Of a stretch of DNA of 64,000 nt, positions 30,396 through 64,000 are shown one piece after another. The stretch is from an uncultured Gammaproteobacteria bacterium. Its GTDB lineage: Bacteria > Pseudomonadota > Gammaproteobacteria > UBA9214. The notes under the pieces were generated by a model, which searched no databases, was not told where the DNA came from, and saw nothing but the letters and a program-made list of their open reading frames with translations. Location: NCBI GenBank assembly GCA_963748215.1, contig CAVVHS010000006.1, positions 672,001 to 736,000 on the forward strand, in the 5' to 3' direction. Positions within the stretch are counted from its first letter, which is position 1, and every line of letters begins with the position of its first letter. Both the position numbers and the translations under genes were made by a program.

Positions 30396-30938
30396 TCACG
30401 GCTCCGCTGCCAGCTGTTTCAGCAGCTCGATGATATCAGCCCTGCCCCACTCCACCGGGCCACGTCCGATGAAGCGAACCCGGCCGCTGCCATCCAGGAC
30501 GTAGGCCGTGGGGAGGACGCTAGCGCCCCAGCCCCTGAATGCCACACTGTCCTTGTCCAGCAGAACGGGGTACTCAATACCAAGCCGCTCAACCGCCGCT
30601 CGCACCCGTCGCCCGGCTTCACCGACGTTCACCCCGATCACCGCAAAGGGCGCGTCTGACATTGCCTCCATCAGTCGCTGGATGTCGGGCATCTCCTCGA
30701 TGCACGGCCTGCACCAGCTCGCCCAGAAGTTGACGAGCAGCACCTTGCCGGCGAACTCGTTCAGACTCCGTGCCCGCCCCGCAAGGTCCGGCAGTCTAAT
30801 AATTGGCGGCAGCACCGCAGGTACCTCGGTCAGCTCGCCGGCAGACGCGGGAAGCGGGAAAAGCCACAGGAGCGAAAGCATCAGAACCATCGTTGCGATA
30901 GCGCGAAGCGCCGTGTGTCGGCTTGTTGCGGCAGTCAT
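30396..30938 (-). CDS. TlpA/ResA-like thiol-disulfide oxidoreductase
   Basis: Signal peptide; LVNFWASWCRPCIEEMP; LPTAYVLD. Confidence 0.9.
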   Translation of the reverse strand: MTAATSRHTALRAIATMVLMLSLLWLFPLPASAGELTEVPAVLPPIIRLPDLAGRARSLNEFAGKVLLVNFWASWCRPCIEEMPDIQRLMEAMSDAPFAVIGVNVGEAGRRVRAAVERLGIEYPVLLDKDSVAFRGWGASVLPTAYVLDGSGRVRFIGRGPVEWGRADIIELLKQLAAEP

Positions 30939-31064
30939 GCGGGATTGTCCCGGGTTGCAGGGAATGCCTGTATTGACACACCTATCACGTCAAGTCGCAG
31001 TCCGCCATCGGCGGGCAAGGCCGGCAATCCACGCGATCGGGTGCGTCGGCCTCTGAATCGTAAT

Positions 31065-31098
31065 AAAAAAGGCCCCGCCGAGGAACCGGCGGGGCCTT
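31065..31098 (-). terminator. Intrinsic terminator after cytochrome gene
   Basis: aaggccccgccg/cggcggggcctt stem followed by T6 on the minus strand. Confidence 0.8.
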
Positions 31099-31145
31099 CG
31101 ATGCGTGGCGGCATCCCTGCCGCCGGGTTTGCTTCCGTAGTACCG

Positions 31146-34070
31146 TTACAGCTCGTTGCCGTGGCACATGTTACAGCGGATCGGTGTGCCTTTAGCCACA
31201 AAACCAACATCCGGCAGGTTACGGTCGGCCGCGGTGCGCGACAGGACCGAACCTTCACCGTTCTGGCCATGGCAGGTCCGACAGGCATTGCGGTTGATGT
31301 TCTGCCGGTGCCCGCCGTCGGCGAAGCTGGTGTTGCCCACCACGTGCATGCCATGCGGTCCCTGCAGGCTCGCGGTCGAACCATTCGTGCCCAGCGCGTT
31401 GAGATTGGTGTGGCACGTATCGCACTCGGTGATGGCACCGGTGTGTCCCTGCAACTGGTCCGCCGTAACATTGTCGTTGGACGCCGGGTTGCCGTTCGGC
31501 CATTCCGCGTGGGTGGCACCATGACAGCCCTCACACATCACACCGCCATGGCCCGTGCTGACGCGATACAACTGCGGGTTGCCCGCACCCGGGTTAGCGA
31601 AGTTGCCGAAGCTCGCCGGTACTGCCGGCTCGGCGAAGCGTTTGTTGGTCGGCACGATAGGCGTCGCCTTGGCGTCGCCACTGCGGTAAGCCTGGCGTAA
31701 ACGCAGACCGTCCACGTTGCCGTCCACATCCCGCGTGTTGGTGATGGTGTTGGGCGTACCCGCCAGATTGCTGGTGGTATCACCCGTATGACAGGAACCG
31801 CAACCCGGTTCGTTGGCCCAGGGCACGCGCGGCTGCGGGTCGTTCGGATCGTAGAAATTGCCGCCCAGTACGAAGGCCCCCGGGTTCTGCGGCGAGACCC
31901 CTGCCGAGAAGTCCGCACCCACCTGCTGCATGTCACCGTGACAGTCGTTACAGAGCATGCCGCCGTTGAACATCGCACCGCGCAGACACTGCACGTTGGT
32001 GCCCGGGTGGCACTGGTAGCAGGTGTCTTCCAGCACCGCCAGACGCGCGGCCTGGTTGGTGATGGCGCCAGCGGCGTTCTGGATCGGTGCCGGCATCGGC
32101 GGGAACAGGTTGCCGAGGCTGCCGTGGTGGCTGTGCATCACGTTGGAGTTGCTCGAATGCGCCACCTGGTTACGTCCGTTGGCAGCGGTGCCGGGGGCTC
32201 CAGCCACCGGGCCGACCTGCGCCAGGTCCAGCGCCGGGGTGTAGTGACACACCTGGCAGACCGCCGGCTTGCCCTGCACCAGTGCCAGGTTGATCAGGCA
32301 GCTGGCGTCGCCGTTTCCGCCATTGGCGGTGACGTCGCACGGCGTTGCAGCGCCCGAAGTATCAACGTAATTGGCACCATGCTTGAGGTCATGCAACCGC
32401 AGGATGTTGATGTCCGCGGCATACTCGACGCTAACATCGGTCGGCAGGGTCGGATCCGGGTCATCCAGGCTCGTTGCCACCGGCAGACCGGCGGCCATGA
32501 GCGTGCCGGTCGGCTGACTGGTGCGGCTGTTCGGCACGTCGGCCGGATCGGAGTGGCAGTTGGTGCAGCTCGCCTCGCCCGAGATCGGCAGCACGGTATC
32601 CACCGTGGCGACGGTGGTGTTGCCCTGCTTGGCCTCGACCCGCACCAGCGGATAGGCGTTCTCGCGACCGTAGTCGTCGTAGGCCGCGAACGGAATGCCC
32701 GCACCTTCGTACCAGTTCACGCCCGCGGCGACATAGCCAAACGGGAAGTCGATGAAGAACGGCTTGTCGCCATAGTGCTCGTTGACCGCTGTCGGAGAGT
32801 TGATGAAGTACGGGTTGGCCAGACCGGGCATCGCATGCTGCACGGCGGTGAGGCTTTCGTCACCGCTGTTGACCACACCGTCGGCACCGATGTAGAGCTC
32901 TTCCACGTTCGGCACCGGCAGGCCCACGTCCAGCGTGACCGGGAACCCTCCGTTTGCCAGCGGCGTAATGCCCAGTCCACCGGGGTAGAACGCGTCGTAC
33001 GCGCCGCCGTTAACCGCATTCCAGAAGTTGGTCTTGTAGCTGCTGCCGTCGGCCTTCAGCCCGCGCTGGACACCCGGAATACCCAGTATCGGGTCATTCG
33101 GATTGGAGGTCGCGGAGTACTCAAGGCCAATACCCGCCGGGTTCAGGGTCGGGGTGCTGCCCCGCTGGATCACCTGACCCAGCAGCACCTGGAACGGCGG
33201 CAGGATGCTGGAGATACGTGTATCCAGGTCGCCGCAATGCATGCCGAGATCGTTGATGGCCAGCACGCGGTAGGCGCCATTCAGCAACGTGTTCACCTCG
33301 GGCACCGTTTGTTCCGGGCAGCCGTCCTGGCTGGTGGAGTTGATGGAGAGGCTATTGGTAACCGGAATACACTGTACCTGCTGCTGTACGCCGGTGCCGG
33401 TCAGGGGCACGTTGACGGTGGTGATGCCGCTGCCGCTGATGGCCAGGTTACCGGTGTCTGCACCGGCTGCGGCTGGGGTGTAGGTAGCCGCGACGGTAGC
33501 CGTAGCGCCGACCGCGACATTGATGGTGGCGGGTGACGTGAGGGCGAACTCGCTGGTGCCGGTGCGGGCCACGCTGAGCGCGCAGGCGGCGGTGCCGGTG
33601 TTTGTCACGGTGGTGCTGCGAGTCACGGTGCTACCCACATTGACACTGCCGAAGGCCAGCGACGTCGGGTTTACCGTGATATTGCAGACCGGCTGCTGCG
33701 CGTCCTGAACGCTGGCCGTCGTGGAGTCGCTGGCCGATGCACCGTCGTTGTCGGTCACGGTCAGGGTTACGGTGTAGTTACCCGCCGCCGCGTAGGTGTG
33801 GTTCGGATTGGCCGCACTGCTGCTGCCGCCGTCTCCGAAATTCCAGGCATAGGTGCTGACAGTCCCGTCCGGATCGCTGGAGCCAGCGCTGGAGAAGCCG
33901 ATTGCTACACCGGTCGTAGCGCTGTAGGGTCCGTTGGCACTGGCCACCGGCGAGAGATTGTTGTCGCCGGTACTGTCACTTCCGCAGGCGGTGAGGCCCA
34001 GTAACATGAATGCGATTGCGAAGCAGGAGAGATACCGGGATAGCCGGGTGGACGTTGTGTTCTTTGACAT
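31146..34070 (-). CDS. Nonaheme cytochrome c lipoprotein with PKD and Ig-like domains
   Basis: Lipobox LTAC; PKD (YAWNFGDG...HTYAAAGNYTVTLTVTDNDG); Ig-like (SLAFGSVNVG); NDLGMHC motif; 9 CxxCH counted. Confidence 0.9.
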   Translation of the reverse strand: MSKNTTSTRLSRYLSCFAIAFMLLGLTACGSDSTGDNNLSPVASANGPYSATTGVAIGFSSAGSSDPDGTVSTYAWNFGDGGSSSAANPNHTYAAAGNYTVTLTVTDNDGASASDSTTASVQDAQQPVCNITVNPTSLAFGSVNVGSTVTRSTTVTNTGTAACALSVARTGTSEFALTSPATINVAVGATATVAATYTPAAAGADTGNLAISGSGITTVNVPLTGTGVQQQVQCIPVTNSLSINSTSQDGCPEQTVPEVNTLLNGAYRVLAINDLGMHCGDLDTRISSILPPFQVLLGQVIQRGSTPTLNPAGIGLEYSATSNPNDPILGIPGVQRGLKADGSSYKTNFWNAVNGGAYDAFYPGGLGITPLANGGFPVTLDVGLPVPNVEELYIGADGVVNSGDESLTAVQHAMPGLANPYFINSPTAVNEHYGDKPFFIDFPFGYVAAGVNWYEGAGIPFAAYDDYGRENAYPLVRVEAKQGNTTVATVDTVLPISGEASCTNCHSDPADVPNSRTSQPTGTLMAAGLPVATSLDDPDPTLPTDVSVEYAADINILRLHDLKHGANYVDTSGAATPCDVTANGGNGDASCLINLALVQGKPAVCQVCHYTPALDLAQVGPVAGAPGTAANGRNQVAHSSNSNVMHSHHGSLGNLFPPMPAPIQNAAGAITNQAARLAVLEDTCYQCHPGTNVQCLRGAMFNGGMLCNDCHGDMQQVGADFSAGVSPQNPGAFVLGGNFYDPNDPQPRVPWANEPGCGSCHTGDTTSNLAGTPNTITNTRDVDGNVDGLRLRQAYRSGDAKATPIVPTNKRFAEPAVPASFGNFANPGAGNPQLYRVSTGHGGVMCEGCHGATHAEWPNGNPASNDNVTADQLQGHTGAITECDTCHTNLNALGTNGSTASLQGPHGMHVVGNTSFADGGHRQNINRNACRTCHGQNGEGSVLSRTAADRNLPDVGFVAKGTPIRCNMCHGNEL

Positions 34071-34465: not shown

Positions 34466-35947
34466 TTAATTTACAGGCCCGGATGTATCGGTCGCGGCAT
34501 TGTCGACAACCTGCAACAGCTCGATGAGATAGATACTCGGCTCGAAACCGCGCAAGCCGCGTTTCCTTACACCGCCAGTGCTCGCGACGTTCGACGGTAC
34601 ATACAGCTCGAATTCTGCCCCTTCCCGCATTTCGAGCAGCGCTTCCTGCCAACCGGGCATAACCTGCTTCATGCTGAACGTCTTTGGCGCTCCGCGCGAA
34701 TATGTTTCAGTTGTTACCGCGCCATCAGGCCTGATTCCCACATAGGAAACCACGACCTGGTCAGCGAGCGTTGGCGACCTGCCGCTGCCAAACTTGACAA
34801 CCCGGTACTGGACGCCATTAGGCAGCGTGGTGACATCCCCGTTGGCCGCATTGTCCTCGAAGAATTCCCTTGCATCCTGCCGTGTATATTGCCGTTCACC
34901 CGCACTGAAAATAGTACGGGCACGACCGGACGTATTTCCGGATAACACCCGGTCAGGCTCGGGCTCGCCGCTAACGGCAGTGTCGAAGGCTGCTGGTTGC
35001 GCAGTTTCAACTGCAACATTTGCCGGTGTTGCATCCGCCACGGTGCTGCTGTCAACATCGGGCGGTTGCAGCTCTTCTTCCAGTGGCAGGTTGTCCATCG
35101 TAGTCTCTCCACTCAAGCCTCCGTTAACAGCGGCCATCAAGTTCTTGATATCCCTGCTCATGTCAGAGAGCATGGCGGCATTCTTCTGTCCATGCCAGAG
35201 CTGGACTCCCCCTACGGCGGCGCCGAGCAACAAGGCAAAGACCGCAGCCGTTATCGTCCAGTTCAGGCGATAATTCTGCTTGTGAACCCGACTCTGCATA
35301 ACCTGGAAATTCTTGAGCACATGCTGGCGTTCATTTTCCAGCTTGATGCCCAGTATCCTGACCTGGTTATCCATGGATTCAAGGCGGTTGCCGGTATCCG
35401 AGAGTGAAACATCAAACTGCCGCAGCTGCTCGACCGACTGGACCTGCAGGTCTCTGATCTGGGTATCTGTCTTGAGCAGCCGGGATGACGTTTCGCTCAG
35501 CGCGTCTTCAAGTGCTTTGACCTGATCACGAGCCTGAACGCGCTCGGTTTCGATTTCCGCAAGTCGCTTTCCCAGATCGAGGATGATGGCGCTGTCTGCC
35601 TCCCTGGCGGTCGCCAGCCGGCTGTTGCTCGATTCGAGCTCGGCCAGCTTTCGGACATCCTCGCCCCGGACACTCTCCAGGTTGTGAAGTACCTGCTCCA
35701 GGTCAGCGATCTGGCGATTTTCTTCATTGCAGACACGTTCAAGGTCCGTGCGAAACCGCTGCACCTGCTCGGTGAGAGCGCGGTTTTGACTGCTGAGGGT
35801 GGATACCTCGTGTTCGAGAACGTCCGAACCGGTCGTCTGTCGGCCACGGCCTGTTGATGGCTGTTTCAGCCTTGAGAGTAGACTTTCCCAGTACTGTCTG
35901 AGTGTGCGCACTGCAATCAACCTCTTATTATTAGCATCCGCAGCCAT
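34466..35947 (-). CDS. Coiled-coil + TM + FKBP-type PPIase-like domain protein
   Basis: ~220-aa heptad region, one TM helix, FkpA-like C-terminus (TLPNGVQYRVVKFGSG, QVMPGWQEALLEMREG). Confidence 0.75.
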   Translation of the reverse strand: MAADANNKRLIAVRTLRQYWESLLSRLKQPSTGRGRQTTGSDVLEHEVSTLSSQNRALTEQVQRFRTDLERVCNEENRQIADLEQVLHNLESVRGEDVRKLAELESSNSRLATAREADSAIILDLGKRLAEIETERVQARDQVKALEDALSETSSRLLKTDTQIRDLQVQSVEQLRQFDVSLSDTGNRLESMDNQVRILGIKLENERQHVLKNFQVMQSRVHKQNYRLNWTITAAVFALLLGAAVGGVQLWHGQKNAAMLSDMSRDIKNLMAAVNGGLSGETTMDNLPLEEELQPPDVDSSTVADATPANVAVETAQPAAFDTAVSGEPEPDRVLSGNTSGRARTIFSAGERQYTRQDAREFFEDNAANGDVTTLPNGVQYRVVKFGSGRSPTLADQVVVSYVGIRPDGAVTTETYSRGAPKTFSMKQVMPGWQEALLEMREGAEFELYVPSNVASTGGVRKRGLRGFEPSIYLIELLQVVDNAATDTSGPVN

Positions 35948-36308: not shown

Positions 36309-36396
36309 TTAAATCCTATTTAATCACGACGGTTGCCCGCGGTCGTCATCCTTTGTTCACGGATAGCACCGCAGCACGCCTGCTGGTGCGCGAATG

Positions 36397-37089: not shown

Positions 37090-38703
37090 CTACTCGCCGC
37101 CGATGGTGGGCGCCTTGCCGCCGCGCAGCTTTTCGATTTCTTCGTAGACCTTTTCCGGCGACTGGGTACCCGTCTCGGACTTGATCTTGTACCAGTCGAT
37201 CTCCTTCTGCATGTGGTAAGAGAGCCTGTCGCTGTAGACCTCGACCGGAATATCTTTCTCTCGCAAGCCCACCACGTACTCGTTCAGCCGCTCCTTGATC
37301 ATGCGTCGCCTGGTCATGCGCCGCGTGCGATCCTCATCGGGGTCAGCATAGATTGCATCTTCCATGTCCTGCACCTGCACCAGATGCCACCCGTTCGGAG
37401 TTTCAACCGGTCCGCCCAGCTCGCCGGGGGCCAGTGAAAAGGCCAGTTTGTCCAGCTCGGGGAAGCCCGTGCCTTCCGTCACCCAGCCGATCTCGCCCAG
37501 CGTCTTGCCAGACGCAGGGATAATGGAATGGTCCTGCGCTGCCTGATACATGGTAATCGTTCCGCTCTCGATCATTTGCTTGATCGCCTCGGCGTCCTCC
37601 CTGGTCTTTAGCACCACGATCTGCAGCTTGCGGCGCGACGGAATCATGATGGAGTCGCGATGCTCGGCATAGTAATCGCGGACTTCCTGATCGCTAGGTG
37701 CGAACGCCTCGACCAGCTTGCCCCTGTGCAGATTGATCAGGTGTACCTTTTTGTACTCGTTGAAGGCATTGAGGTAGGCCGGGTCCTGCTCCAGGCCTGT
37801 GGCCCGTGCCTTGCTGGTCATAATCCGGTAGTCGATCAGTTCGTCAAGCGTGCTGATGCGCCGCTCCACCGACGCTGAACTGCCGCCCGCACTTAAAGGT
37901 ACCTTGACCTGCCCCCAGCGGAGCGGCTGGCCATCGATCTCCGCTACTACCTCGGCATCATCGCGTACCACATCATCTTCGGGATCCAGCTCCGTAACAT
38001 TGATGACGACCGGCACACCGTCCCGCAGCCGGGAGCGCATGTCGGTACCGCCCAGCCCGAGCTTCTGGTCACGCAGCTTGGACGCGATGGCCAGCCGGGT
38101 CTCATCGGTGAACTCGGTGCCCGCGGCAATGTTGTCCTTGAAATATGCCTCGACCTCCGCGTCCGTGACTTCGATCTGCTCCGACTTGTTACGCCGCTGG
38201 TAGACCAGGGCCAGCATGCCGTCTGAGAAGGTCTCGAGATCCCGCTGATACCCGGGATCCTTGTCCACGCCTTTTTGTATTGCATCCAGGTACAGCAGGT
38301 TGGCGCTGATGACCCGATCCAGCAGCGTCAGGCGCACCTGGTCGCGCTCCGGCGAACCCAGCTCCGGTATCGAGAGGCCCACGATGGCCGAGCTGTTGAT
38401 CATGGTGTTGAGCTGATTGAACGAGATGGGCTGGTCGCCAACCCTGGCAATGACGTCATCCTTGTACACCGGTGGCGCCGCTTCAGCCTGCTTCGGTTCC
38501 CCGGCCTGATTCAATGCTTCGGCCTGTTTCGGTTCCCCGGCCTGCTTCGGCACCTCAGCCTGCTTCGTATCCGCGGTGTTCGGTGCTTCGACCTGCCCCG
38601 GTTCCTGGACCGGTTGCAAGGCCTCGGCCTGTACCGGCGGAAACGCGGCAATACCGAGTAAAAAAGGCAATGTGGCAATGGCTACCGATAGAATGCTTTT
38701 CAT
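37090..38703 (-). CDS. PpiC/parvulin-type peptidyl-prolyl isomerase (SurA/PrsA-like chaperone)
   Basis: Signal peptide; two VIARVG/VVAEID chaperone-like halves; GEIGWV...FPELDKLAFSLAPGELGGPVETPNGWHLV. Confidence 0.85.
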   Translation of the reverse strand: MKSILSVAIATLPFLLGIAAFPPVQAEALQPVQEPGQVEAPNTADTKQAEVPKQAGEPKQAEALNQAGEPKQAEAAPPVYKDDVIARVGDQPISFNQLNTMINSSAIVGLSIPELGSPERDQVRLTLLDRVISANLLYLDAIQKGVDKDPGYQRDLETFSDGMLALVYQRRNKSEQIEVTDAEVEAYFKDNIAAGTEFTDETRLAIASKLRDQKLGLGGTDMRSRLRDGVPVVINVTELDPEDDVVRDDAEVVAEIDGQPLRWGQVKVPLSAGGSSASVERRISTLDELIDYRIMTSKARATGLEQDPAYLNAFNEYKKVHLINLHRGKLVEAFAPSDQEVRDYYAEHRDSIMIPSRRKLQIVVLKTREDAEAIKQMIESGTITMYQAAQDHSIIPASGKTLGEIGWVTEGTGFPELDKLAFSLAPGELGGPVETPNGWHLVQVQDMEDAIYADPDEDRTRRMTRRRMIKERLNEYVVGLREKDIPVEVYSDRLSYHMQKEIDWYKIKSETGTQSPEKVYEEIEKLRGGKAPTIGGE

Positions 38704-38810: not shown

Positions 38811-38844
38811 AAAAAAAATGGAGGGGAAGCAACCTTCCCCTCCA
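38811..38844 (-). terminator. Intrinsic terminator after large cytochrome gene
   Basis: tggaggggaag/cttcccctcca stem followed by T8 on the minus strand. Confidence 0.8.
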
Positions 38845-38896
38845 CACTGGTTCATGAATCCCCGCTCAGTCCTTCATGAGCGGGCACGATCCTCGC

Positions 38897-44722: not shown

Positions 44723-44922
44723 TGTCTCTCCTCCATTCACCGGGTGGGCCCGGCATTCGTATAGTGGCGATTGTTGGTATAACCAAACTAAATTTATTGT
44801 TGCAGACCTCTCACCCCCTGGGCGTTCAGTGCACGGGTCTGCTTCTGCTTCAGCGTAGTACAGGATACTGGGTTGACCTGCACGTCGCTGCACAAACTCA
44901 ATCAATTCCTGAACTTTTCTAA

Positions 44923-44938
44923 TGCAATATCCTGGCCA
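44923..44938 (-). promoter_or_regulatory. Putative sigma54 (-24/-12) promoter of the giant cytochrome gene
   Basis: Minus strand TGGCCAGGATATTGCA = GG-N10-GC; repeated TGTCAG boxes upstream at 45003-45060. Confidence 0.55.
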
Positions 44939-51692: not shown

Positions 51693-52253
51693 TCAGGCAG
51701 CCTTGCGGCGGGCAACACCGACAAGACCCAGCAGGCCGGAACCAAACAGCCATACGGCAGCCGGTACCGGTACCGGGGTTACCTGGACCTGACCGGTGAC
51801 GTAGTCGACGGGAACATTGGCGCCGGCGACAGACCATCCGCCGAAGATATCTGCGAAGGTGATGTCCGTGGCGGATCCATCAGCACCGATGACATTGAAG
51901 CTGATATCAACAATATTGAAGTCCGATCCGAAGAAACCCACGCTGCGTCCAAGGAACACGAAATCCACTGTACCGGCTGCGGCGTTGAGGTCGCTAATAC
52001 TGACCGTATCCCAGTTCGGATCACTCACCACACTACCGGTGTACTGCAGCACGGTTGGGTCCCAGTTAAACGTGAAGGCGGCACCATCCACTGTATCCGT
52101 AAACAGCGTCCCCACAAGGTTCAGAGTCACTGACGGGGCCCCGCCGGTTAAAATCGGGTTGGGTTGTGTCAGCTGCACTGTATTGGCTGCGGCCTGCCCT
52201 GCTACCCCTAACATCACCAGTGAAGTCATGATTATCAAAAGCTTTTTATACAT
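51693..52253 (-). CDS. Cohesin-like domain protein with VPLPA/PEP-CTERM-type sorting signal
   Basis: Signal peptide; all-beta ~135-aa domain with FTFNWDPTVLQY and NIVDISFNVIGADGSATDITF; VPVPAAVWLFGSGLLGLVGVARRK tail. Confidence 0.8.
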   Translation of the reverse strand: MYKKLLIIMTSLVMLGVAGQAAANTVQLTQPNPILTGGAPSVTLNLVGTLFTDTVDGAAFTFNWDPTVLQYTGSVVSDPNWDTVSISDLNAAAGTVDFVFLGRSVGFFGSDFNIVDISFNVIGADGSATDITFADIFGGWSVAGANVPVDYVTGQVQVTPVPVPAAVWLFGSGLLGLVGVARRKAA

Positions 52254-55775: not shown

Positions 55776-56388
55776 TCTTGTTATCAGTCCGAGCATAGGT
55801 ACACTCAAGCAGCAGCCGGTGCTATTGTCAATTCGACTCTGGCTTACCGTGAGATGCTCGACCCTGAATTCCCCGATCACCAGTGTGACTTTATCCCCGC
55901 GCTGCACGCGCCGATCGGGATGGGAGAACCTCATGCCAGAGGCAAATCGCCCCCGCCTCGTCCAGGCCCGGAGTCATGCTGCTGACTCTGCCCGGATGCT
56001 CCTGGAACCCCTTTGACTATCCCGCCAGGCCAGTGAATGTATCCTGCATGCTCAAAGGCAGAATGCGTTCCACGCGCATCAAAAAAACACTGCAATGTCT
56101 GAACCTGGCCAATATATGTGTGCATTCACTCAGCAAGTTAGACAACAGGCGGGACTGAAGCGGCAACAGCCGGCATCCGGCAGCCGGGCTTGATCTTCTT
56201 TCACTATTAAGATTAACTTGTTACAACAAAATACTGATAAAACGCCTGGAAGCGGCCGGTCACTATAAAGTCATTCAGCCGCCCACAGATTTTTCTTGGC
56301 CCGCATCTTAACCATCAACAGCAGGCATACTGTGGAGCATCCACAGGCACGGAGTCCCGGGACGCTAGTCTTCATTAAGAGGTGCAAA

Positions 56389-58110
56389 ATGGCAGTGGCA
56401 ACAAACGAGCTCCTCAGCGCGAACGACCGGGATCTTGGCGAACGACTGGTCGCGTCTGGCAAACTCACCCGCGGTGATCTCGAACGCACCGTCCAGATCC
56501 AGCGCGGGACACGGGAACGGCTGGATTCATTGCTGGTCCGTTCGGGCCTGGTATCCGAACAGGACGCTGCGCAGGCGCTCGCCGAGCAGCTGTCACGGCC
56601 GCTGACAGGGCCCGCCGACTATCCGGATTTCCCACTGCTCGAAGAGCAGCTCTCGGTGAAGTTTCTCAAGCACCACAAGATCGTGCCCCTGTCCTGTGAC
56701 GACGAGCAGCTGGTGGTCGCCATGGCCGATGCGCGCGACAGCTACGCAGTCAATGCGCTGGAACTGGTCAGCGCGCGGCAGGTCGTGCCGTGGGTGGGCC
56801 TGCCCTCGGAGATCGATACCGCACTGGAACATCTCTACGGCGCCGGCAAGACCCAGATGGCGCGCATTGTTGACGACCTCGCCGAGGCCAGTGAAGAGAC
56901 CACCACGCAGGAGCAGATCGCCCAGCTCCGGGACCTGGCCAGCGAGGGACCCGTTATCCGCCTGGTAAATCTGCTGGTCGAACATGCCGTGGAAGCCCGG
57001 GCATCGGACATACATGTCGAACCCTTCGAACACAAGTTGCGCGTTCGCTACCGTCTGGATGGCATGCTGCAGGAAGTCGAGGCGCCCCCGGCGCGCCTGT
57101 CTGCGGCGGTCATCTCCCGCATCAAGATCATGGCAAAACTGGACATCGCGGAACGCCGTTTGCCGCAGGATGGACGCATTCGGCTGCGGGTACGCGGCAG
57201 CAGTGTGGATCTGCGTGTATCGACGCTGCCAACCATGCACGGCGAAAGCGTGGTAATGCGGCTGCTGTACAAGGACAATGCAACACACGACTTCAGGAGC
57301 CTTGGTTTCGATGACGAGATCCTCGAGATCTTCCTGAAGACCGTGCGCATGCCGAACGGCATCGTGCTGGTAACCGGCCCGACCGGCAGCGGCAAGACGA
57401 CCACCCTGTACGCGGCGCTGACCTTGCTCAACGATCCCGCCCGCAAAATCATTACCGTCGAGGACCCGATCGAGTACGAGCTGACGGGCATCAACCAGAT
57501 CCAGGTGAAATCACAGATCGGCCTGACCTTCGCCAACACCCTGCGTTCCATCGTGCGCCAGGACCCGGACGTGATCATGATCGGCGAAATGCGTGATCTC
57601 GAAACAGCGGAGATAGCCGTCCAGTCGGCCCTGACCGGTCATCTGGTGCTGTCCACATTGCACACCAACGACGCGGCAGGCAGCGTCACCCGCATGCTGG
57701 ACATGGGCCTGAAGGAGTACCTGGTGACGTCCGTACTCAACGGTGTGCTTGCCCAGCGCCTGGTGCGCAGGCTCTGTCAGCAGTGCCGCCGGGCCTACCA
57801 GCCGTTACCGGAACTGATCGAGCAGACCCGGCTGGACCGGCTGGCGGCGGGGAAACCGATCGAACTCTACGAAGCCGTCGGCTGCGAGCACTGCCGCGGC
57901 ACCGGGTACCAGGGCCGCACCACGATCATGGAAATGCTGGTGATGTCCGACCAGATCCGCAGCATGATACTGCAGCATGCCGATGCACGTGATATCGCCA
58001 GGGCCGCCATTGCGGCAGGTATGCGCACGATGTACGAGGACGGTCTGCGCAAGGTGCTTGCCGGCGAGACCACCCTGGGCGAGGTGTTGCGGGTTACCCA
58101 GGAGACCTAG
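56389..58110 (+). CDS. gspE: Type II secretion ATPase
   Basis: ASDIHVEP, GPTGSGKTTT, RQDPDVIMIGEMRD, tetracysteine motif, MshEN-like N-terminus; GAGGTG RBS. Confidence 0.93.
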   Translation: MAVATNELLSANDRDLGERLVASGKLTRGDLERTVQIQRGTRERLDSLLVRSGLVSEQDAAQALAEQLSRPLTGPADYPDFPLLEEQLSVKFLKHHKIVPLSCDDEQLVVAMADARDSYAVNALELVSARQVVPWVGLPSEIDTALEHLYGAGKTQMARIVDDLAEASEETTTQEQIAQLRDLASEGPVIRLVNLLVEHAVEARASDIHVEPFEHKLRVRYRLDGMLQEVEAPPARLSAAVISRIKIMAKLDIAERRLPQDGRIRLRVRGSSVDLRVSTLPTMHGESVVMRLLYKDNATHDFRSLGFDDEILEIFLKTVRMPNGIVLVTGPTGSGKTTTLYAALTLLNDPARKIITVEDPIEYELTGINQIQVKSQIGLTFANTLRSIVRQDPDVIMIGEMRDLETAEIAVQSALTGHLVLSTLHTNDAAGSVTRMLDMGLKEYLVTSVLNGVLAQRLVRRLCQQCRRAYQPLPELIEQTRLDRLAAGKPIELYEAVGCEHCRGTGYQGRTTIMEMLVMSDQIRSMILQHADARDIARAAIAAGMRTMYEDGLRKVLAGETTLGEVLRVTQET

Positions 58111-58236
58111 CCCGCCGTTCTCGCCGGGTGATTAAAAGTGACTTCAGGGAATCAAAGCGTGAAAGGAATACAATTACGCCAACCAGGCGCATGTCAACGG
58201 ACACAGCCCGTCCCAAAGAGACGTCCGGGCTAGTCC

Positions 58237-59466
58237 ATGCCACGGTTTCGCTACAAGGCGGTGGGCGAGGACGGCCAGCTGATCCAGGGTGAGCTGCAGG
58301 CACCCAGCCACGAGGCGGTTATCGACTGGCTCCAGGACCACGGACACACTCCGATTCGGGCGGTCGAGAGCGGTGCGGCCAAGGACACCCTCCCAAGCAG
58401 CGCCGCGCCGCGCCTGCCGCGCCCGCTGCAAAAACGTCGCAAGGTGGACATAGGCCATTTCACCCGCGACCTGAGCACCTTGCTGGCTGCAGGTCTACAG
58501 CTGGAAAGAGCACTGCAGATACTTGCTGAAATGGCAGAGGACACGAACACCGCCGGGCTGTTGTCACGCCTGCTCGATGAAATCCGTGAAGGTGCATCCC
58601 TGGCAGCCGCCATGGAGGCGCAACAGGGCGTATTCAGCAAGTTCTATCTCAACATGGTTCGGGCCGGTGAGGCCGGTGGTGCAGTAGAAACGGTGCTGGG
58701 CCGGCTCGCGGTGTTTATGGAGCAGTACGATGAGCTCAAGTCCAGCATCAAGTCCGCACTCATCTATCCCAGCATCCTGATCACCATCACCGTGGCCTCG
58801 GTAATCATACTCGTCGTCTTTGTGGTCCCGCAGTTCGCCGCGCTGTTCGAGGACATGGGACAGGAATTACCCCTGCCGACCCGGATCGTCATCGGGTTCG
58901 GGGAAGCCTTTCAGAAATACGGCCTGGTAGCTGCCCTGCTGGTGAGCGTGTTGATCTACCTGCTGCGGCGCCAGCTCGCGAAGCCGCAGTTCAGATACCG
59001 CTGGGACAAGTGGCTGCTGGGCCTGCCGCTACTGGGCGAGCTGATCACCAAGATCGAAGTCACGGTGTTTGCACGCACGCTGGGCACGTTACTGGCGAGC
59101 GGTGTACCGATGCTGACGGCGCTCGGCATCGTGAAGGAGACACACACCAATCGGCTACTGCGCCAGGCTGTGGAATCGATCGCGGACAACGTGGAGCAAG
59201 GTCAGGGTCTGGCCGGGCCGATGCTGGAAACCGGCCGCTTTCCCCGCCTCGCCTCGCATCTGGTCCAGGTCGGGGAGGAAACCGGCCAGCTGGAGCAGAC
59301 CCTGAATCGTCTCGCGGATATCTACGACCGCGAGGTGACCATCTCCATCCAGCGCATGCTGGCGCTGGTGGAGCCGGTCCTGATTATCGGGCTAGGAATT
59401 GTCGTCGGGGGTATTATCATGTCGATTCTCGTCGCTGTACTGAGCGTGAATGACCTGGCCTTCTGA
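58237..59466 (+). CDS. gspF: Type II secretion platform protein
   Basis: MVRAGEAGG, ALIYP, VVPQF, VGEETGQL, LVEP. Confidence 0.93.
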   Translation: MPRFRYKAVGEDGQLIQGELQAPSHEAVIDWLQDHGHTPIRAVESGAAKDTLPSSAAPRLPRPLQKRRKVDIGHFTRDLSTLLAAGLQLERALQILAEMAEDTNTAGLLSRLLDEIREGASLAAAMEAQQGVFSKFYLNMVRAGEAGGAVETVLGRLAVFMEQYDELKSSIKSALIYPSILITITVASVIILVVFVVPQFAALFEDMGQELPLPTRIVIGFGEAFQKYGLVAALLVSVLIYLLRRQLAKPQFRYRWDKWLLGLPLLGELITKIEVTVFARTLGTLLASGVPMLTALGIVKETHTNRLLRQAVESIADNVEQGQGLAGPMLETGRFPRLASHLVQVGEETGQLEQTLNRLADIYDREVTISIQRMLALVEPVLIIGLGIVVGGIIMSILVAVLSVNDLAF

Positions 59467-59548
59467 CCCTGCCTGCAGCGCCGTGCCGCACACGGGCCCG
59501 ATAACACAACGTTGCAAAGCTCGAACCATAAACAACTCCGGAAACTCT

Positions 59549-59989
59549 ATGAAAGCCCAACACAACAGACATACCCGACCCGACACCCGCGGCTTTACCC
59601 TGATCGAACTGCTGGTCGTACTGGTGATACTCAGCATGCTGGCCGGTCTGGTCGGGCCGCGCATCATGAAATATGTCGGTGAATCCAAGACCAAGACAGC
59701 CCGCCTGCAGATCCAGGAACTCGGTGCGGCCATCGATCTCTACCACCTGGACGTCGGGCGTTATCCGAGCAGTGAACAGGGGCTGAATGCCCTGCTCGAG
59801 AAACCGGCGGATGCCGAGCACTGGAACGGGCCCTACCTCAAGAAGAACAAGACACCGCAGGATCCCTGGGGCTTTGACTATCACTTCGAATCGCCGGGCA
59901 CGAATGGTCCTGTTGACCTGTACTCACTCGGCGCCGACAACGCGCAGGGTGGCACGGGCGAGAACCAGGACATCAACAGCTGGGAGTAA
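59549..59989 (+). CDS. gspG: T2SS major pseudopilin
   Basis: GFTLIELLVV; YPSSEQGLNAL, WNGPYL, DPWG, YSLGADNAQGGTGENQDINSW. Confidence 0.95.
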   Translation: MKAQHNRHTRPDTRGFTLIELLVVLVILSMLAGLVGPRIMKYVGESKTKTARLQIQELGAAIDLYHLDVGRYPSSEQGLNALLEKPADAEHWNGPYLKKNKTPQDPWGFDYHFESPGTNGPVDLYSLGADNAQGGTGENQDINSWE

Positions 59990-59995
59990 GGGTGC

Positions 59996-60499
59996 ATGAA
60001 TGCTCGCCGCATGCGCAAACACCCGGGTGCCGGACGGCAGGCGACCCGCGGCGCAGCGCCCCAGCCGCAGTCCGGTTTCACGCTGATTGAACTGCTGGTC
60101 GTCATACTCATCGCAACGCTGCTCATTGCCACGGTCCCGCCGCTGTTCACGGGCAGCATCTCCGGCGCAGAATCACGTGCCGCAGCGCGCCAGCTTGCCA
60201 CCGCTTTGCGAGCCGTGCGTGGCCAGGCCATCGCGCAGCATCAGGAGACCGCCCTTCTGCTCGACCTCGACCAGCGGCGCTACCGAATCTCCGCAGCAGA
60301 GCGCGAGTTCCAGCTGGACAAGGACCTCGCCCTTACCCTCACCATTGCCCGCGGACAGGTCCTGGAACAGAACCTGGGCAGTATCCGTTTCTTCCCGGAC
60401 GGGAGTTCGAGTGGCGGGCGCATCAAACTGGCCAGTGACAGGCACGCGTATGTGATCGATGTCGACTGGCTCACGGGCAAGATCGAGCTGCATGACTGA
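59996..60499 (+). CDS. gspH: T2SS minor pseudopilin H
   Basis: GFTLIELL; IRFFPDGSSSGG; VDWLTG. Confidence 0.88.
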   Translation: MNARRMRKHPGAGRQATRGAAPQPQSGFTLIELLVVILIATLLIATVPPLFTGSISGAESRAAARQLATALRAVRGQAIAQHQETALLLDLDQRRYRISAAEREFQLDKDLALTLTIARGQVLEQNLGSIRFFPDGSSSGGRIKLASDRHAYVIDVDWLTGKIELHD

Positions 60500-60899
60500 A
60501 ATCAGGCACTCTCCTCGCAGAGACAGGGGGTTCTCGCTGCTGGAGGTACTGGTGGCCTTTGCCATTCTCGCCATTTCCCTGGGAACGCTGTTTGCCCTGT
60601 TTTCCACCGGATTCAGAAACGTTGACGTGGCCCGGGATTACAACCGCGCCGTGATCATGGCCGAATCGAAGCTTGCGGAAATTGACGCGACGCAAACGCT
60701 GACAGCGGGTGTATACGAAGGTGAATTCGACCCGCGCTATCGCTGGAGTGCGGAAGTAAGCGAATATCTGGCAGACGACGCGGCAACCCGGCCGGCGTTG
60801 CAACTGCGCATCTACCGGGTGACGGTGACGGTGTCCTGGGGCGAGTCGCCGCGCCCCCGATCGGTGGTCCTGACCACCCTGAGGACTACGAGTGGCTAG
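60492..60899 (+). CDS. gspI: T2SS minor pseudopilin I
   Basis: GFSLLEVLVAFAIL; VTVTVSW; start overlaps the gspH stop. Confidence 0.85.
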   Translation: MTEIRHSPRRDRGFSLLEVLVAFAILAISLGTLFALFSTGFRNVDVARDYNRAVIMAESKLAEIDATQTLTAGVYEGEFDPRYRWSAEVSEYLADDAATRPALQLRIYRVTVTVSWGESPRPRSVVLTTLRTTSG

Positions 60900-61599
60900 C
60901 CCGTGTTGCGCTCGCGGACCAGCGACCGACAACAACGCCCTGCGGACGGGTCGTCGCCACCGCATGACCTCCCCGGCTGTTTCCGCAGCCCGGGGTTTTA
61001 CGCTGCTGGAGCTGATCATTGCCATCACCCTGTCCGGCCTGATCATGGTGCTCGCATTCAGTGCGATGCGACTGGCCATCAGCAGCTGGCGCACCGTGGA
61101 GTCCGTCGATGCCAGCCTGGAAGAACTCCAGGTGGTGCAGGGATTTCTACGCCGCCAGCTCGAGCAGGCCAGGAGCATGACCCGCACCAACCAGTCGGAG
61201 CAGAACACCACGCTGAAAGGCAATGCACGCGCCCTGAATTTCATCGCCCCGATGCCGGGCAGCCGGCTCGGTGTCTGGGGCCTGTACCGGTTCACTCTGG
61301 CCTTCGTCCCGGTGGATTCCGGTACGAATCTGCAAATCACGTACTGGCTGGCCTTGCCGCCGGCGGATCCGGACCGGATTGCCGGTGAGGCACAGACCCG
61401 AATCCTGCTCAGGGACCTCGAATCCGGTGCCTTTTCCTACTATGGCACGCCGACGGCCAAGGAGCCGGCGACATGGCACGATGAATGGGCCAGCGATGCG
61501 TCATTGCCCCAGCTGGTCAGGGTGCGGCTGCTCAGCCGGGACAAGGCAAACTACTGGCCGGACCTCATCATACCCGTCCATGCGCGGGGTAATGGCTGA
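60892..61599 (+). CDS. gspJ: T2SS minor pseudopilin J
   Basis: GFTLLELIIA; WHDEW...LPQLVRV...WPDL; start may be 60964. Confidence 0.85.
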   Translation: MASPCCARGPATDNNALRTGRRHRMTSPAVSAARGFTLLELIIAITLSGLIMVLAFSAMRLAISSWRTVESVDASLEELQVVQGFLRRQLEQARSMTRTNQSEQNTTLKGNARALNFIAPMPGSRLGVWGLYRFTLAFVPVDSGTNLQITYWLALPPADPDRIAGEAQTRILLRDLESGAFSYYGTPTAKEPATWHDEWASDASLPQLVRVRLLSRDKANYWPDLIIPVHARGNG

Positions 61600-62570
61600 T
61601 GCGACTGTCCCGTGAAAGCGACCCGGCACCGGGTGTCCGGTTGCCTGTGCACCAACACGCACACCGCGCCCGGCACACCCTGACCGCGCGCAGCCGCATA
61701 CCCGGGCAACGGGGCATCGCACTGCTGATCGTACTGTGGATTGTGGCGCTGCTTGCGATCATAGCCGGCAGCAGCGCGGTCAGCGTAAGAACGCAGACCG
61801 CGATCGTGGACAACCTGGTTGTTTCGGCCCGCGCCCGTGCCGCGGCGCAGGCCGGGCTGCACTATGCCGCCTTCCAGCTGCTCAAGCAGAACGCCGCAGA
61901 GCGCTGGCGCACTGACGGCACCGTGTACGAGCTGGGCTATGGCGATGCCCGCCTGCGCATCACCGCGGTCGAAGAAGCTGGAAAAGTCAGCCTCAACGCC
62001 GCACCCGGCGATATGATCGGCAGGCTGTTGCGTACGGCCGGCATCGATGACGACCGCGCTGCGGCACTGGTCGATGCCATTCTGGACTGGCGTGATCCCG
62101 ATGACCTGCGGCGCATCAACGGCGCCGAACAGGATGACTACCGGGCTGCCGGCCGCAGTTACCTGCCGAGAAACAGTCCGTTTCAAAGCAACGATGAAGT
62201 GGCGCTGGTGCTGGGCATGCAACCCGACGACTTTGCCAGGATACAAGGCGCGGTGACTGCCTATTCGGGATCTGCCAGTGTTGATCCGGCCGTGGCGGTA
62301 CCGCTGGTCCGGCTTGCCCTGAACGGGGGCATACCAGGTGATACCGAGTCCGCTCAATCTGCCCTGGCCAGCACTGCGCTTGGAACCCTGCGACCCACTG
62401 CCCCGGGTTCCCTGCTCAGTGTCCATGTCGAGGCCGGGATGCCCGGTGGTGTGCGGGAGCGGTTAACGGCAGTGATCAAACTCAGGCCGGCACAACAGGG
62501 AGCGGCGTTTGCGGTGTTCGCCTGGCAGGAGCAGGCCGGGGCGATGCTCCCCGGGCGAAACGCTGATTAA
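61599..62570 (+). CDS. gspK: T2SS minor pseudopilin K
   Basis: RGIALLIVLW (no E5); EAGKVSLN; ILDWRDPDD...GAE. Confidence 0.9.
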   Translation: MRLSRESDPAPGVRLPVHQHAHRARHTLTARSRIPGQRGIALLIVLWIVALLAIIAGSSAVSVRTQTAIVDNLVVSARARAAAQAGLHYAAFQLLKQNAAERWRTDGTVYELGYGDARLRITAVEEAGKVSLNAAPGDMIGRLLRTAGIDDDRAAALVDAILDWRDPDDLRRINGAEQDDYRAAGRSYLPRNSPFQSNDEVALVLGMQPDDFARIQGAVTAYSGSASVDPAVAVPLVRLALNGGIPGDTESAQSALASTALGTLRPTAPGSLLSVHVEAGMPGGVRERLTAVIKLRPAQQGAAFAVFAWQEQAGAMLPGRNAD

Positions 62571-62615
62571 TACCTCTGCCTTCAAGCCTGCACACGGGAT
62601 ATATTGCAACCCTGC

Positions 62616-63161
62616 TCAGGGTCGCAAGCCCGGCAGAAGTCCGGCAGGCATGCCGTTGTTAGTACGGATCTCCTTGTCCGGTTCGAGGGCAAGCTCCAGT
62701 CGCTCCTCGCCGCGTGTGAAGGTGGCGCCCGCGCTCTGAACACGCTCGACCGTCCAGCCCTGGTGTGACATACCCTCTGCAAGCTGCAGCAGCTGGTTGT
62801 TGCCGAGATCGCGGACCACGACGATCCGCGACTCGGGGGTGATGACCACCCCTTCCAGTTGCAGACGGACAGGAGGGCCCTTCGCCACGGGCTTTTCCGA
62901 TGTCGCCGGCTCTGCGGGCGGCTGACGCCCCTCGCTGAACAACGGGCGCTCGAGGATCTCGTCGAACATCCCGATGGGGGGAGCCTTGTAGGTCATTCGG
63001 GTGAGCGGAACAGCATTGTCTGATCCCGGGCGCGACTCCGCCGGGTCGCTGATTCGGGTCTGTGTCGCGAAATACCATTCGGCCGCGACCAGGACAGCCA
63101 TCAAGGCGCAGGCCAGCAGCAGGAACGGCGTCAGTCTGTTACCAAAAGGGAGACGCTTCAT
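62616..63161 (-). CDS. T2SS accessory protein (XpsN/GspC-like)
   Basis: N-terminal TM helix, ERPLFSEGRQPP, LEGVVITP, GWTVERV; overlaps the gspM stop. Confidence 0.65.
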   Translation of the reverse strand: MKRLPFGNRLTPFLLLACALMAVLVAAEWYFATQTRISDPAESRPGSDNAVPLTRMTYKAPPIGMFDEILERPLFSEGRQPPAEPATSEKPVAKGPPVRLQLEGVVITPESRIVVVRDLGNNQLLQLAEGMSHQGWTVERVQSAGATFTRGEERLELALEPDKEIRTNNGMPAGLLPGLRP

Positions 63162-63736
63162 GATTGATGCGGCATGTAGCCGACCAGTTCGAAATCCATG
63201 TCAAGGCTCTGCCGGGTATTGACCTTACGCTGCTGGTAACGACTGCCGAGCGCGCGCACCGACACCGAGTCCAGAAACAGAAACAGTTTATCGGTCTCGA
63301 TGCTGTAGAATACCGCCACGGCGCTCTCCAGTGTGCCGCGCATACGCACTCTCAGGGCGACGCGGGTAAATCCCTGCTCCTGCACCGGCGGTACGATCTG
63401 TGTGCTCAGGATCTCGGCCTGATTCGCCGTAACGATACGCTTCACGACCTGCTGCAGCTCGGCAGCAGCCAGCGATTCGTTGTCACTGGTCAGATAGCGC
63501 ACATCGGACACCTGCCAGCTTTTCAGCTGTTCGTAGCGCGGCTGCAGGCTCGCGCCGGCTGCAGCAACCTGCCTGAGTTGCTGCCACCGGCCCTGCAGGG
63601 CGTCGATGTTGTCCTGATAGTGGCGGTTCGCCAGCCAGAGCGGCAGCACCGTCACGCTCATGACCAGCCCGACCAGCAGGATCAGGATTGCCACAGCCGC
63701 CGCACGACGCTGCCCGTCACTCAAGGTTTCGATCAT
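63158..63736 (-). CDS. gspM: T2SS protein M
   Basis: TM helix, coiled segment, LAAAELQQVVK, IETDKLFLFLDSVSV; follows the GspL-like gene. Confidence 0.8.
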   Translation of the reverse strand: MIETLSDGQRRAAAVAILILLVGLVMSVTVLPLWLANRHYQDNIDALQGRWQQLRQVAAAGASLQPRYEQLKSWQVSDVRYLTSDNESLAAAELQQVVKRIVTANQAEILSTQIVPPVQEQGFTRVALRVRMRGTLESAVAVFYSIETDKLFLFLDSVSVRALGSRYQQRKVNTRQSLDMDFELVGYMPHQS

Positions 63737-64000
63737 GGCACCGCTCCCTCCACCACATCTGCAGACAGGTGGAAACGCTCTGCATTCGAGCGCGCGACCT
63801 GGGTAATCGGCGAGCGAAAACGTGCGTTTTGCAGGAGGGGCGAGGATTCGATGAGCGGGATAAGTGCCGCCACAGCTGTGGATTCTCCCTGCAGCTGGAC
63901 TTCCGAACCCTTGATCTCCAGCCGGTTGACCCAGGTGTCATCGGGCAGAATTCGCGTGACTTCATTCAAAATCTGCAGCGTCAGCAGCCTTGACTGCTTC
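63733..64000 (-). CDS. gspL: T2SS protein L / PilN-domain protein, 3' end only
   Basis: LNEVTRILPDDTWVNRLE...LQGES...LIESSPLLQNARFRSPI; 5' part outside the window. Confidence 0.75.
   Translation of the reverse strand, partial: KQSRLLTLQILNEVTRILPDDTWVNRLEIKGSEVQLQGESTAVAALIPLIESSPLLQNARFRSPITQVARSNAERFHLSADVVEGAVP

Follow-up and report, generated by a model that had tools for sequence, protein, structure and literature searches.

Are a large multiheme cytochrome and a secreted protease, encoded on either side of a small cohesin-like protein, held outside the cell by that protein? The question is raised by a locus in a 64,000-nt stretch (the window) of contig CAVVHS010000006.1 (GCA_963748215.1), which comes from an uncultured Gammaproteobacteria bacterium of the UBA9214 lineage. 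Domains in the open reading frames (ORFs) of the window were annotated by Pfam and NCBIfam scans and judged against curated cut-offs, with 43 ORFs scanned. A sequence-only reading of the same DNA had proposed a cellulosome-like cohesin–dockerin system. On balance we favour a non-cellulosomal cohesin–dockerin tether, in which a single-cohesin anchor sorted by a VPLPA-CTERM tail would keep secreted proteins that carry a dockerin tag in the matrix or at the envelope, and the adjacent type II secretion system (T2SS) would export the folded cargo. The locus suggests a plug-in mounting of redox and hydrolytic proteins outside the cell, borrowed from cellulose-degrading bacteria.

Dockerin modules and a cohesin domain at one locus

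The two carriers are a cytochrome with ten CXXCH motifs (38897..44722, − strand; longest ORF 38897..45001, giving a 2034-aa frame) and an S8 subtilase (53025..55775, − strand). The sequence-only reading had placed both ORFs at these positions and had credited them with closely similar TSP3 + dockerin modules; the ORFs exist there, on the − strand, and both of the peptides that it quoted are present. In the cytochrome, the TSP3 repeat and dockerin occupy 42689..42979 (− strand; residues 675–771 of the 2034-aa frame), contain the loop-helix repeats DFNNNGIVDPTDF and DINGNGIVDPTDF, and match a profile hidden Markov model (HMM) of the module with an E-value of 3.9e-31. In the protease, the TSP3 repeats and C-terminal dockerin occupy 53028..53423 (− strand), end in GQPPGPAGVLP at the stop codon and match the same HMM with E 6.4e-33. 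The two modules are 65% identical over 74 columns (BLASTP E 3e-27 in a single comparison), and the remaining parts of the two carriers are unrelated. A six-frame regular-expression scan of the window found Ca-loop motifs of the module type confined to the cytochrome and protease genes, and the module HMM likewise matched these two ORFs only.

In the sequence, the dockerin shows a pair of EF-hand-like Ca2+ loops in tandem, DFNNNGIVDPTD and DINGNGIVDPTD, with a short helix after each. Residues D or N occupy loop positions 1, 3, 5, 9 and 12, and the two internal repeats of the cytochrome dockerin are identical at 15 of 21 positions. The AlphaFold2 (AF2) model of the cytochrome module, with a predicted local distance difference test score (pLDDT) of 76.8, has exactly two helices (25–34 and 52–60) behind two D/N-rich loops. 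When this model was searched against the PDB with Foldseek, ranks 1 to 12 were dockerins, the best being 2y3n_B (E 7.7e-3, root-mean-square deviation 1.3 Å over 52 columns). A search of PDB sequences with the module gave weak best matches (E 0.004–0.01), and these were dockerins as well. Together with the Pfam matches of their relatives, given next, these data place the shared modules of the window in a dockerin family.

The module family extends far beyond this locus. A profile made from the two modules matched 5521 clusters (50% identity) at E<=1e-3 among 1.84 billion representatives, 1597 of them at E<=1e-10. Most of the 150 carriers listed have the module as their extreme C-terminus, with PPGPSG as its end. 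Pfam counts were made on 144 of these top 150 carriers, six proteins longer than 1500 aa being left out. Dockerin_1 was matched at E<=1e-3 in 103 of the 144 (59/73 + 44/71; best E 3.7e-30) and TSP_3 in 109. The carriers are highly diverse and include S8 peptidases (3/73 + 3/71), proteins with Ig/cadherin repeats, RHS or FG-GAP, a GH114, a heparinase and phosphoesterases.

So large a family on such diverse carriers would also fit an explanation in which the modules do not pair with the cohesin at all. The TSP3 + dockerin-like unit would then be a general Ca2+-binding module for stabilisation or adhesion, for example to exopolysaccharide or mineral, the cohesin-fold protein would be one among many Ig-like exosortase substrates, with a place in, for example, matrix or floc, and the adjacency of the genes would reflect a shared neighbourhood of secreted proteins. 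Against this stand the near-identical modules on two unrelated carriers of one cluster.

The putative partner is a protein of 186 aa (51693..52253, − strand) with a Sec signal peptide, a single cohesin domain (approximately residues 24–158) and a VPLPA-CTERM exosortase-type tail. The VPLPA-CTERM model (TIGR03370) scored 26.8 bits, above its cut-off of 25.35, at residues 161–184 and thus at the extreme C-terminus; the Pfam PEP-CTERM model was matched too. The tail consists of a transmembrane helix and, after it, basic residues. The AF2 model of the protein (pLDDT 90) has strands only between the signal peptide and the tail. In a Foldseek search of the PDB with this model, about 48 leading rows among those listed were cohesins, with all three types (I, II and III) represented (best E 4e-9; TM-score on the target 0.72–0.77), the non-cellulosomal Archaeoglobus fulgidus cohesin 2xdh among them. 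A profile of 56 homologues gave full-domain cohesin matches to PDB sequences, the best being 1g1k (E 6.6e-6), and the top 22 rows were cohesins throughout. As modelled, the domain is a flattened beta-sandwich (jelly-roll) of the cohesin fold. The sequence-only reading had described a cohesin-like protein with a PEP-CTERM-type tail between the cytochrome and the protease and had staked its proposal on the fold of that protein; both the fold and the tail were found. Moreover, the two folds correspond to solved structures of the two sides of a binding pair that has been studied in detail, which argues against modules that do not pair.

The family of the cohesin protein comprises 3619 proteins at E<=1e-3 among 8000 candidates scored, and its named members are from Methylococcales, Thiogranum and other Gammaproteobacteria. 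In the family alignment, a signal peptide precedes a single beta domain, and the VPVPAAVWLFGSGLLGLVGVARR tail is invariant. A precomputed PF00963 annotation is present on 9 of the 120 homologues listed. No scaffoldin or other multi-cohesin relative was found among the longer proteins, where there were nine matches with at most 52%, and mostly 15–33%, query coverage; this is weak evidence. The protein also weakly matches PepA, a PEP-CTERM protein of flocculation (29.5 bits, cut-off 80), as an exosortase substrate of floc or matrix might. A full-text literature search for the term VPLPA-CTERM found a single paper.

Gene neighbourhoods and the proposed tether

To examine the company that such cohesins keep, 75 loci from other genomes, with up to 10 kb on each side, were fetched with a DNA pattern of the VPLPA tail only. 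Because the pattern covers nothing but the tail, most of these loci encode unrelated tail-bearing proteins, and they were used as a natural control set. Purpose-built cohesin and dockerin-module HMMs sorted the loci into 9 with a cohesin domain and 66 tail-only controls. Weak tblastn cohesin matches at L012, L016, L039, L067 and L073 missed E 1e-3 with the cohesin HMM, and all five loci were counted as controls; a Pfam scan ruled out the tail proteins of L016, L039, L067 and L073 as cohesins.

A dockerin-module ORF was present at 4/9 cohesin loci versus 4/66 controls (Fisher one-sided p 0.0057). Strong dockerin modules occurred at 6.9 per 100 kb at the cohesin loci and at 0.23 per 100 kb at the controls, which puts their density near cohesin genes at about 30 times that near tail-only genes of similar taxa. 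At L005, L006 and L010 the dockerin-module ORF is the adjacent gene to the cohesin gene on the same strand, and L010 has the cohesin, a dockerin protein and an orthologue (56%) of the 1405-aa protein of the window together. Five dockerin-module ORFs, one of them weak, were found at L001. Both the density and the direct adjacency argue against the explanation in which the modules do not pair.

L001 and L002 adjoin each other on a single contig, CAVWDM010000001.1, of a metagenome-assembled genome (MAG). This contig keeps the gene order of the window as judged by tblastn, with identities of 63% for the S8-dockerin protein, 61% for the cohesin, 56% for the FKBP protein and 73% for the 1405-aa protein, and with the cytochrome as the last member. 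The cytochrome (L001 16388..20421) is about 50% identical from the dockerin to the C-terminus, with a single repeat where the window protein has five; in L001 its sequence is split among several frames, which points to assembly frameshifts. Three further dockerin ORFs are found on the contig. A second cohesin-VPLPA gene (57% identity) lies about 20 kb from the cluster, directly downstream of gspD on the same strand (region L002 6925..10570, + strand), and gspE-K lie beside this second cohesin gene, diverging on the other strand. The sequence-only reading had also made its proposal depend on the genes occurring together in related genomes. What was found is an association of neighbourhoods together with one fully syntenic cluster that has T2SS genes beside a cohesin.

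In the tether that we propose, the single-cohesin protein would be exported by Sec, held by its VPLPA-CTERM tail and probably processed there, and would act as an anchor in the exopolysaccharide layer or at the cell envelope. The Ca2+-binding TSP3 + dockerin modules of secreted proteins would plug into this anchor, the cargo in the window being the S8 subtilase through its C-terminal module and the 10-CXXCH cytochrome through its internal one. The tethered cytochrome would then present its nine-heme domain on one side and an Ig-repeat stalk with one further heme on the other, and the neighbouring T2SS would be the likely route across the outer membrane for folded, heme-loaded cargo. The evidence on domains and on gene association is solid. 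We only infer that cohesin and dockerin bind and that they do so in a Ca2+-dependent way, where the cohesin finally resides, that the cargo uses the T2SS and what role the cytochrome has, such as the electron exchange with minerals or sulfur that the sequence-only reading had in view. A complex prediction with cohesin residues 24–158 (56-row alignment), the cytochrome dockerin (26-row alignment) and two Ca gave scores of 0.21 and 0.18 against a mark of 0.32, a result that speaks neither for nor against binding.

Several observations weigh against the tether. The Pfam Cohesin model (PF00963) scored 23.7 bits in the 186-aa protein, just under the cut-off of 24.1, and Dockerin_1 (PF00404), found with TSP_3 in both cargo proteins, scored 17.6 bits in the cytochrome and 18.2 bits in the protease with a cut-off of 22.9; the internal dockerin of the cytochrome is also atypical of the module family. 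Cytochromes are rare cargo, as at least four CXXCH motifs occur in just 1 of the top 150 module carriers, and 105 of the 120 homologues listed for the heme domain are without the module and bear PKD domains, Ig repeats or nothing. Neither GspD nor GspL was found among the window ORFs scanned, although the operon may run past base 64000, and no exosortase family was matched among the same 43 ORFs, those of 1..30000 included. VPLPA-CTERM proteins are not known to have been traced to a final location. The synteny comes from one well-covered genome and a partial second, and related genomes share gene order by descent. Finally, five of the nine cohesin loci are without a dockerin in the available DNA (L004, L007 and L030 span only 2–4 kb, L003 is cut 1.9 kb upstream of the cohesin gene, and L002 abuts L001), and dockerin modules occur without a detectable cohesin neighbour at four control loci, the tail proteins of which are not cohesins by Pfam. 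These last two counts speak for modules that do not pair, as do the PepA match and the breadth of the module family. Set against the two folds, the shared modules and the gene neighbourhoods, we nevertheless consider it unlikely that they do not.

A real pairing confined to the periplasm, in which an uncleaved C-terminal helix would keep the cohesin in the inner membrane with the cytochrome and protease at its periplasmic face, for staging or retention before secretion or as a periplasmic redox module, agrees with the helix and basic residues of the tail, with the lack of an exosortase among the window ORFs scanned and with the periplasmic-type folding helpers of the locus (TlpA-like, PpiC-type and FKBP-type), but is improbable given a cargo architecture typical of extracellular proteins (Calx-beta, Big_9/cadherin, TSP3, and S8 with a propeptide-like region), the linkage of T2SS genes to the cluster in two genomes, and the cleavage of sorting tails of this general class, several of which lead to surface display according to the available text of 10.1101/2023.06.07.544157.

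Candidate cargo, secretion and folding genes

The annotation of the large cytochrome rests on Pfam and NCBIfam matches and the CXXCH count. Its start at 44722 is an ATG with a GGAGGAG Shine–Dalgarno sequence just upstream. The protein starts with a long N-region, its signal peptide and an N-terminal part with one heme. Five Big_9/cadherin repeats in tandem come next, then TSP3 + dockerin and a further cadherin-like repeat, and a nine-heme domain of about 1150 aa comes last. The module is thus internal, between the five Big_9/cadherin repeats and the heme domain, and not terminal, which corrects the earlier reading. The N-region is unusually long, with about 55 residues from the ATG to the hydrophobic core of the signal peptide (44470..44722, − strand). 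A terminator-like hairpin (38818..38845, − strand), with a 12-pair stem and then a T run, lies 52 nt past the stop codon of the cytochrome gene.

Within the length range searched, 279 relatives of the heme domain were found at E<=1e-5. Nine CXXCH motifs are present in 113 of the 120 homologues listed, and the named homologues, which include Candidatus Thiodiazotropha, are all 'hypothetical' proteins of Gammaproteobacteria. Fifteen of the 120 bear the dockerin module, 14 of these directly after the signal peptide. No match of the heme domain to PDB sequences was found at E<=1, and an atlas search returned only uncharacterised 'cytochrome c7 / MtrC-like' clusters with scores of at most 0.85. A model of MtrC/MtrF domains II/IV scored 20.2 bits in the cytochrome and 24.3 bits in the 9-heme lipoprotein of the locus, and its cut-off of 30 was not reached.

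This lipoprotein (31146..34070, − strand) has nine CXXCH motifs, the lipobox LTAC, and PKD and choice-of-anchor D domains. It is a distant paralogue of the large cytochrome in the heme domain (BLASTP E 1e-6), in keeping with the second 9-heme paralogue that the sequence-only reading had named as lipid-anchored. To judge by the lipobox, it is probably anchored by lipid rather than by a dockerin, and the locus would thus offer two mounting modes for paralogous cytochromes, a lipobox for the 9-heme protein and a dockerin for the 10-heme protein.

Other redox proteins with dockerins were also seen. P0195, which is unrelated to the window cytochromes, has 820 aa, a DUF642 domain, five CXXCH motifs and a C-terminal dockerin with a Dockerin_1 score of 35.5 bits, above the Pfam cut-off; it also has a weak match to an MtrC-like domain (26.6 bits, below 30). 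P0246 is another unrelated cytochrome, with 335 aa, two CXXCH motifs and a C-terminal dockerin above the Pfam cut-off. At L001 2725..6187 (+ strand), four consecutive ORFs in different frames match Cu-oxidase_3 (E 1.8e-9) and, weakly, Cu-oxidase_2 (E 0.0017), and contain TSP3 repeats and a full dockerin module. These ORFs are probably fragments of a single gene, broken by frameshifts, that encodes a multicopper oxidase with a dockerin tag; the syntenic genome would then have a second redox cargo.

The secreted S8 subtilase consists of a signal peptide, a propeptide-like region, three Calx-beta domains, the S8 catalytic domain (Peptidase_S8 171.8 bits, with the D/H/S motifs present), TSP3 repeats (TSP_3 31.9 bits) and the C-terminal dockerin. 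Its start at 55775 yields a normal signal peptide. Well upstream of this signal peptide, the 31 residues from the first ATG of the protease frame (55842..55934, − strand) are 61% identical to a stretch upstream of the L001 orthologue (6828..6920), and may be a conserved leader peptide or a regulatory region.

The 1405-aa protein (46802..51019, − strand) is a further conserved member of the cluster, with a TIGR03790-like N-terminal region, three Calx-beta domains, choice-of-anchor U and a JDVT-CTERM tail. The JDVT-CTERM model (NF033191) scored 28.4 bits, above its cut-off of 27, on the tail ending in GGCTLVATATTSLDPVFPLSLLVAAGGLYRRYRRVSS, and the single Cys, the DP motif in the helix and the Arg-rich end of such tails are all present. 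Genes for this protein adjoin cohesin genes in three genomes: in the window, at L001 12673..15720 (73% identity) and at L010 11499..15335 (56%). JDVT-CTERM proteins are said to occur once per genome, usually beside a CPBP protease; in the available text of 10.1101/2023.06.07.544157, this protease was adjacent in 16 of the 17 nearby cases found among 36 JDVT-CTERM proteins. No CPBP-type intramembrane protease was matched in the ORFs that flank the 1405-aa gene (45023..46544 and the cohesin gene). The N-terminal 800 aa gave no usable match in the atlas search, and the protein matches PDB sequences through its Calx-beta domains only.

Between 30396 and 55934 the − strand encodes, in order of position, a TlpA-like protein, the 9-CXXCH lipoprotein, a coiled-coil/FKBP protein, a PpiC-type protein, the large cytochrome, the 1405-aa Calx-beta protein, the 186-aa protein and the S8 subtilase. 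The TlpA/ResA-like periplasmic thiol-disulfide oxidoreductase (30396..30938, − strand) matches Pfam AhpC-TSA and Redoxin, with NCBIfam matches below cut-offs. The coiled-coil protein with an FKBP-type peptidyl-prolyl isomerase domain (34466..35947, − strand) has a 56%-identity orthologue within the syntenic cluster of L001, and the PpiC-type peptidyl-prolyl isomerase (37090..38703, − strand; Rotamase_2 76.1 bits) has a weak match to the EpsD family (TIGR02925, 72.8 bits, below 108.9). The region 45000..46800, between the 1405-aa and cytochrome genes, contains only overlapping poor ORFs and has no counterpart in L001; over a fragment, one of these ORFs weakly resembles a periplasmic binding protein (Peripla_BP_6, E 0.0094). 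Judged by its ORFs, this region is possibly non-coding or a decayed gene. Positions 1..30000 of the window are unremarkable, with genes for a FleQ-like sigma-54 activator, RelA/SpoT, a dynamin-like GTPase, an RND efflux pump and its fusion protein, an OmpA-family protein and DUF1631.

A T2SS operon, gspE-F-G-H-I-J-K (56296..62570, + strand), diverges from the protease gene and was identified by Pfam and NCBIfam. It is followed by GspM of the XpsM type (NF040576, 127.2 bits, cut-off 60) and a weak GspC-like ORF (T2SSC 20.4 bits, below 27), both within 62616..63736 on the − strand. Curated T2SS scores were passed by GspE (TIGR02533, 658.9 bits versus 630.25), GspG (159.4 versus 88.85) and GspM, and GspF, H, I, J and K match NCBIfam T2SS models below the curated scores. 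The Pfam and NCBIfam matches thus uphold the TlpA, PpiC, FKBP-like and T2SS genes that had been listed from the sequence. Residues 47–98 of GspE (56296..58110, + strand) contain an N-terminal MshEN-related motif for binding of cyclic di-GMP (NF053729, 45.8 bits, cut-off 38), which suggests that this T2SS is under cyclic di-GMP control. In two Halioglobus MAG loci, L067 (9878..18556) and L052, a VPLPA-tail protein with no detectable cohesin lies within about 5 kb of gspE-F-G.

Relation to known systems

The earlier description of the locus as cellulosome-like holds for its components, a cohesin fold and modules of the dockerin family, and fails for its organisation. The window has one cohesin domain and no protein with several, and the search for a scaffoldin, weak as that evidence is, gave none; the dockerin carriers are an S8 peptidase and a cytochrome, with no carbohydrate-active enzyme as cargo. 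A closer parallel is provided by the clostridial single-cohesin anchors, such as OlpA and OlpC of Clostridium thermocellum (complexes 3ul4 and 4dh2 are among the fold matches), in which one envelope-anchored cohesin holds a dockerin-tagged secreted enzyme, as is proposed here. Clostridial dockerins also have two near-identical Ca2+ loop-helix repeats, there with a dual binding mode according to the title of 2vn5. The host here is Gram-negative, in contrast to the clostridia, and the module differs in having TSP3 before the dockerin and P-T/S at loop positions 10–11; within the cytochrome family, the position of the dockerin is N-terminal or internal. Whereas the clostridial anchors are described in the available part of PMC9012536 as using SLH domains or sortase, the cohesin of the window has a VPLPA-CTERM exosortase-type tail.

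Cohesin–dockerin pairs outside cellulose degradation have precedents. The A. fulgidus cohesin (2xdh) and the Clostridium perfringens NagH/NagJ complex (2ozn) are non-cellulosomal, and pairs of this kind serve to assemble secreted proteins. Peer et al. 2009 is said to be a survey of non-cellulosomal cohesin and dockerin modules. Our literature search, with Peer et al. 2009 and supplements lying outside it, found no dockerin-bearing multiheme cytochrome and no cohesin on a PEP-CTERM/exosortase-type tail. The literature search also found no cohesin–dockerin case with a conserved gene link to a T2SS. For a gammaproteobacterium, Saccharophagus degradans, the accessible text of PMC2386152 mentions dockerin-like and cohesin-like ORFs that were left untested there. 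For anaerobic methanotrophic (ANME) archaea, 'MHC adhesion' (MHC, multiheme cytochrome) mediated by cohesin and dockerin has been put forward as a hypothesis (excerpt of PMC5244752), and the dockerin carriers named in the accessible part of PMC9012536 are ABC-transporter binding proteins and S-layer proteins, not cytochromes. In contrast to the present host, the ANME organisms are archaea, without a T2SS or exosortase. The novelty claimed by the sequence-only reading therefore stands, within our search, for the dockerin-bearing multiheme cytochrome and the PEP-CTERM-type cohesin, and gives way for non-cellulosomal pairs and the idea of cytochrome adhesion, which the available texts of PMC2386152 and PMC5244752 already have in print.

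The secretion and sorting of the locus have parallels of their own. GlyGly-CTERM proteins (Vibrio cholerae, rhombosortase) and MYXO-CTERM proteins (Myxococcus) have tails that undergo processing in the inner membrane, and the passage of these proteins across the outer membrane to the surface then depends on a T2SS, as stated in the available text of 10.1101/2023.06.07.544157. In these systems, too, genes for a sorting-tail protein and a serine protease lie beside a T2SS. Unlike the GlyGly-CTERM case, the protease here has no sorting tail of its own and would borrow one by docking on the cohesin. The tails also differ, being VPLPA-CTERM on the cohesin and JDVT-CTERM on the 1405-aa protein, neither of which is known to depend on a T2SS.

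MtrC and OmcA of Shewanella are decaheme lipoproteins of the outer surface that depend on a T2SS. The large cytochrome is likewise a multiheme protein, its gene adjoins T2SS genes, and its MtrC/MtrF domain match is weak and below cut-off; MtrC is a lipoprotein, as is the second cytochrome of the locus. Differences are the approximately 1150 aa used here for nine hemes and the proposed anchor, which would be protein–protein docking and not lipid. No MtrAB-like porin–cytochrome pair was found among the window ORFs scanned.

The mounting of multiheme cytochromes in Gram-negative bacteria is, to our knowledge, known for a few models only, namely lipoprotein anchors, porin–cytochrome complexes and cytochrome filaments. 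A broader form of the tether would make the exosortase-sorted single cohesin a universal socket in sulfur-oxidiser-like Gammaproteobacteria, into which nine-heme cytochromes, the probable multicopper oxidase of the syntenic genome and smaller cytochromes would be plugged interchangeably after T2SS export, together with a protease, to give a modular surface for extracellular electron transfer. We offer this extension tentatively, as a doubtful but possible generalisation of the tether; if true, the socket would be a third outside mounting besides lipid anchors and porin–cytochrome complexes. Orthogonal Gram-negative cohesin–dockerin pairs would also be of use as building blocks for surface display. 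Proteins of the heme-domain family are common among uncultured Gammaproteobacteria, and the family is without a solved or named relative, so that any functional handle on it is useful. If the tether itself is real, dockerin-tagged cytochromes with a matching cohesin anchor would represent a modular, protein–protein mounting principle, and cohesin–dockerin biology would gain a function outside polysaccharide degradation.

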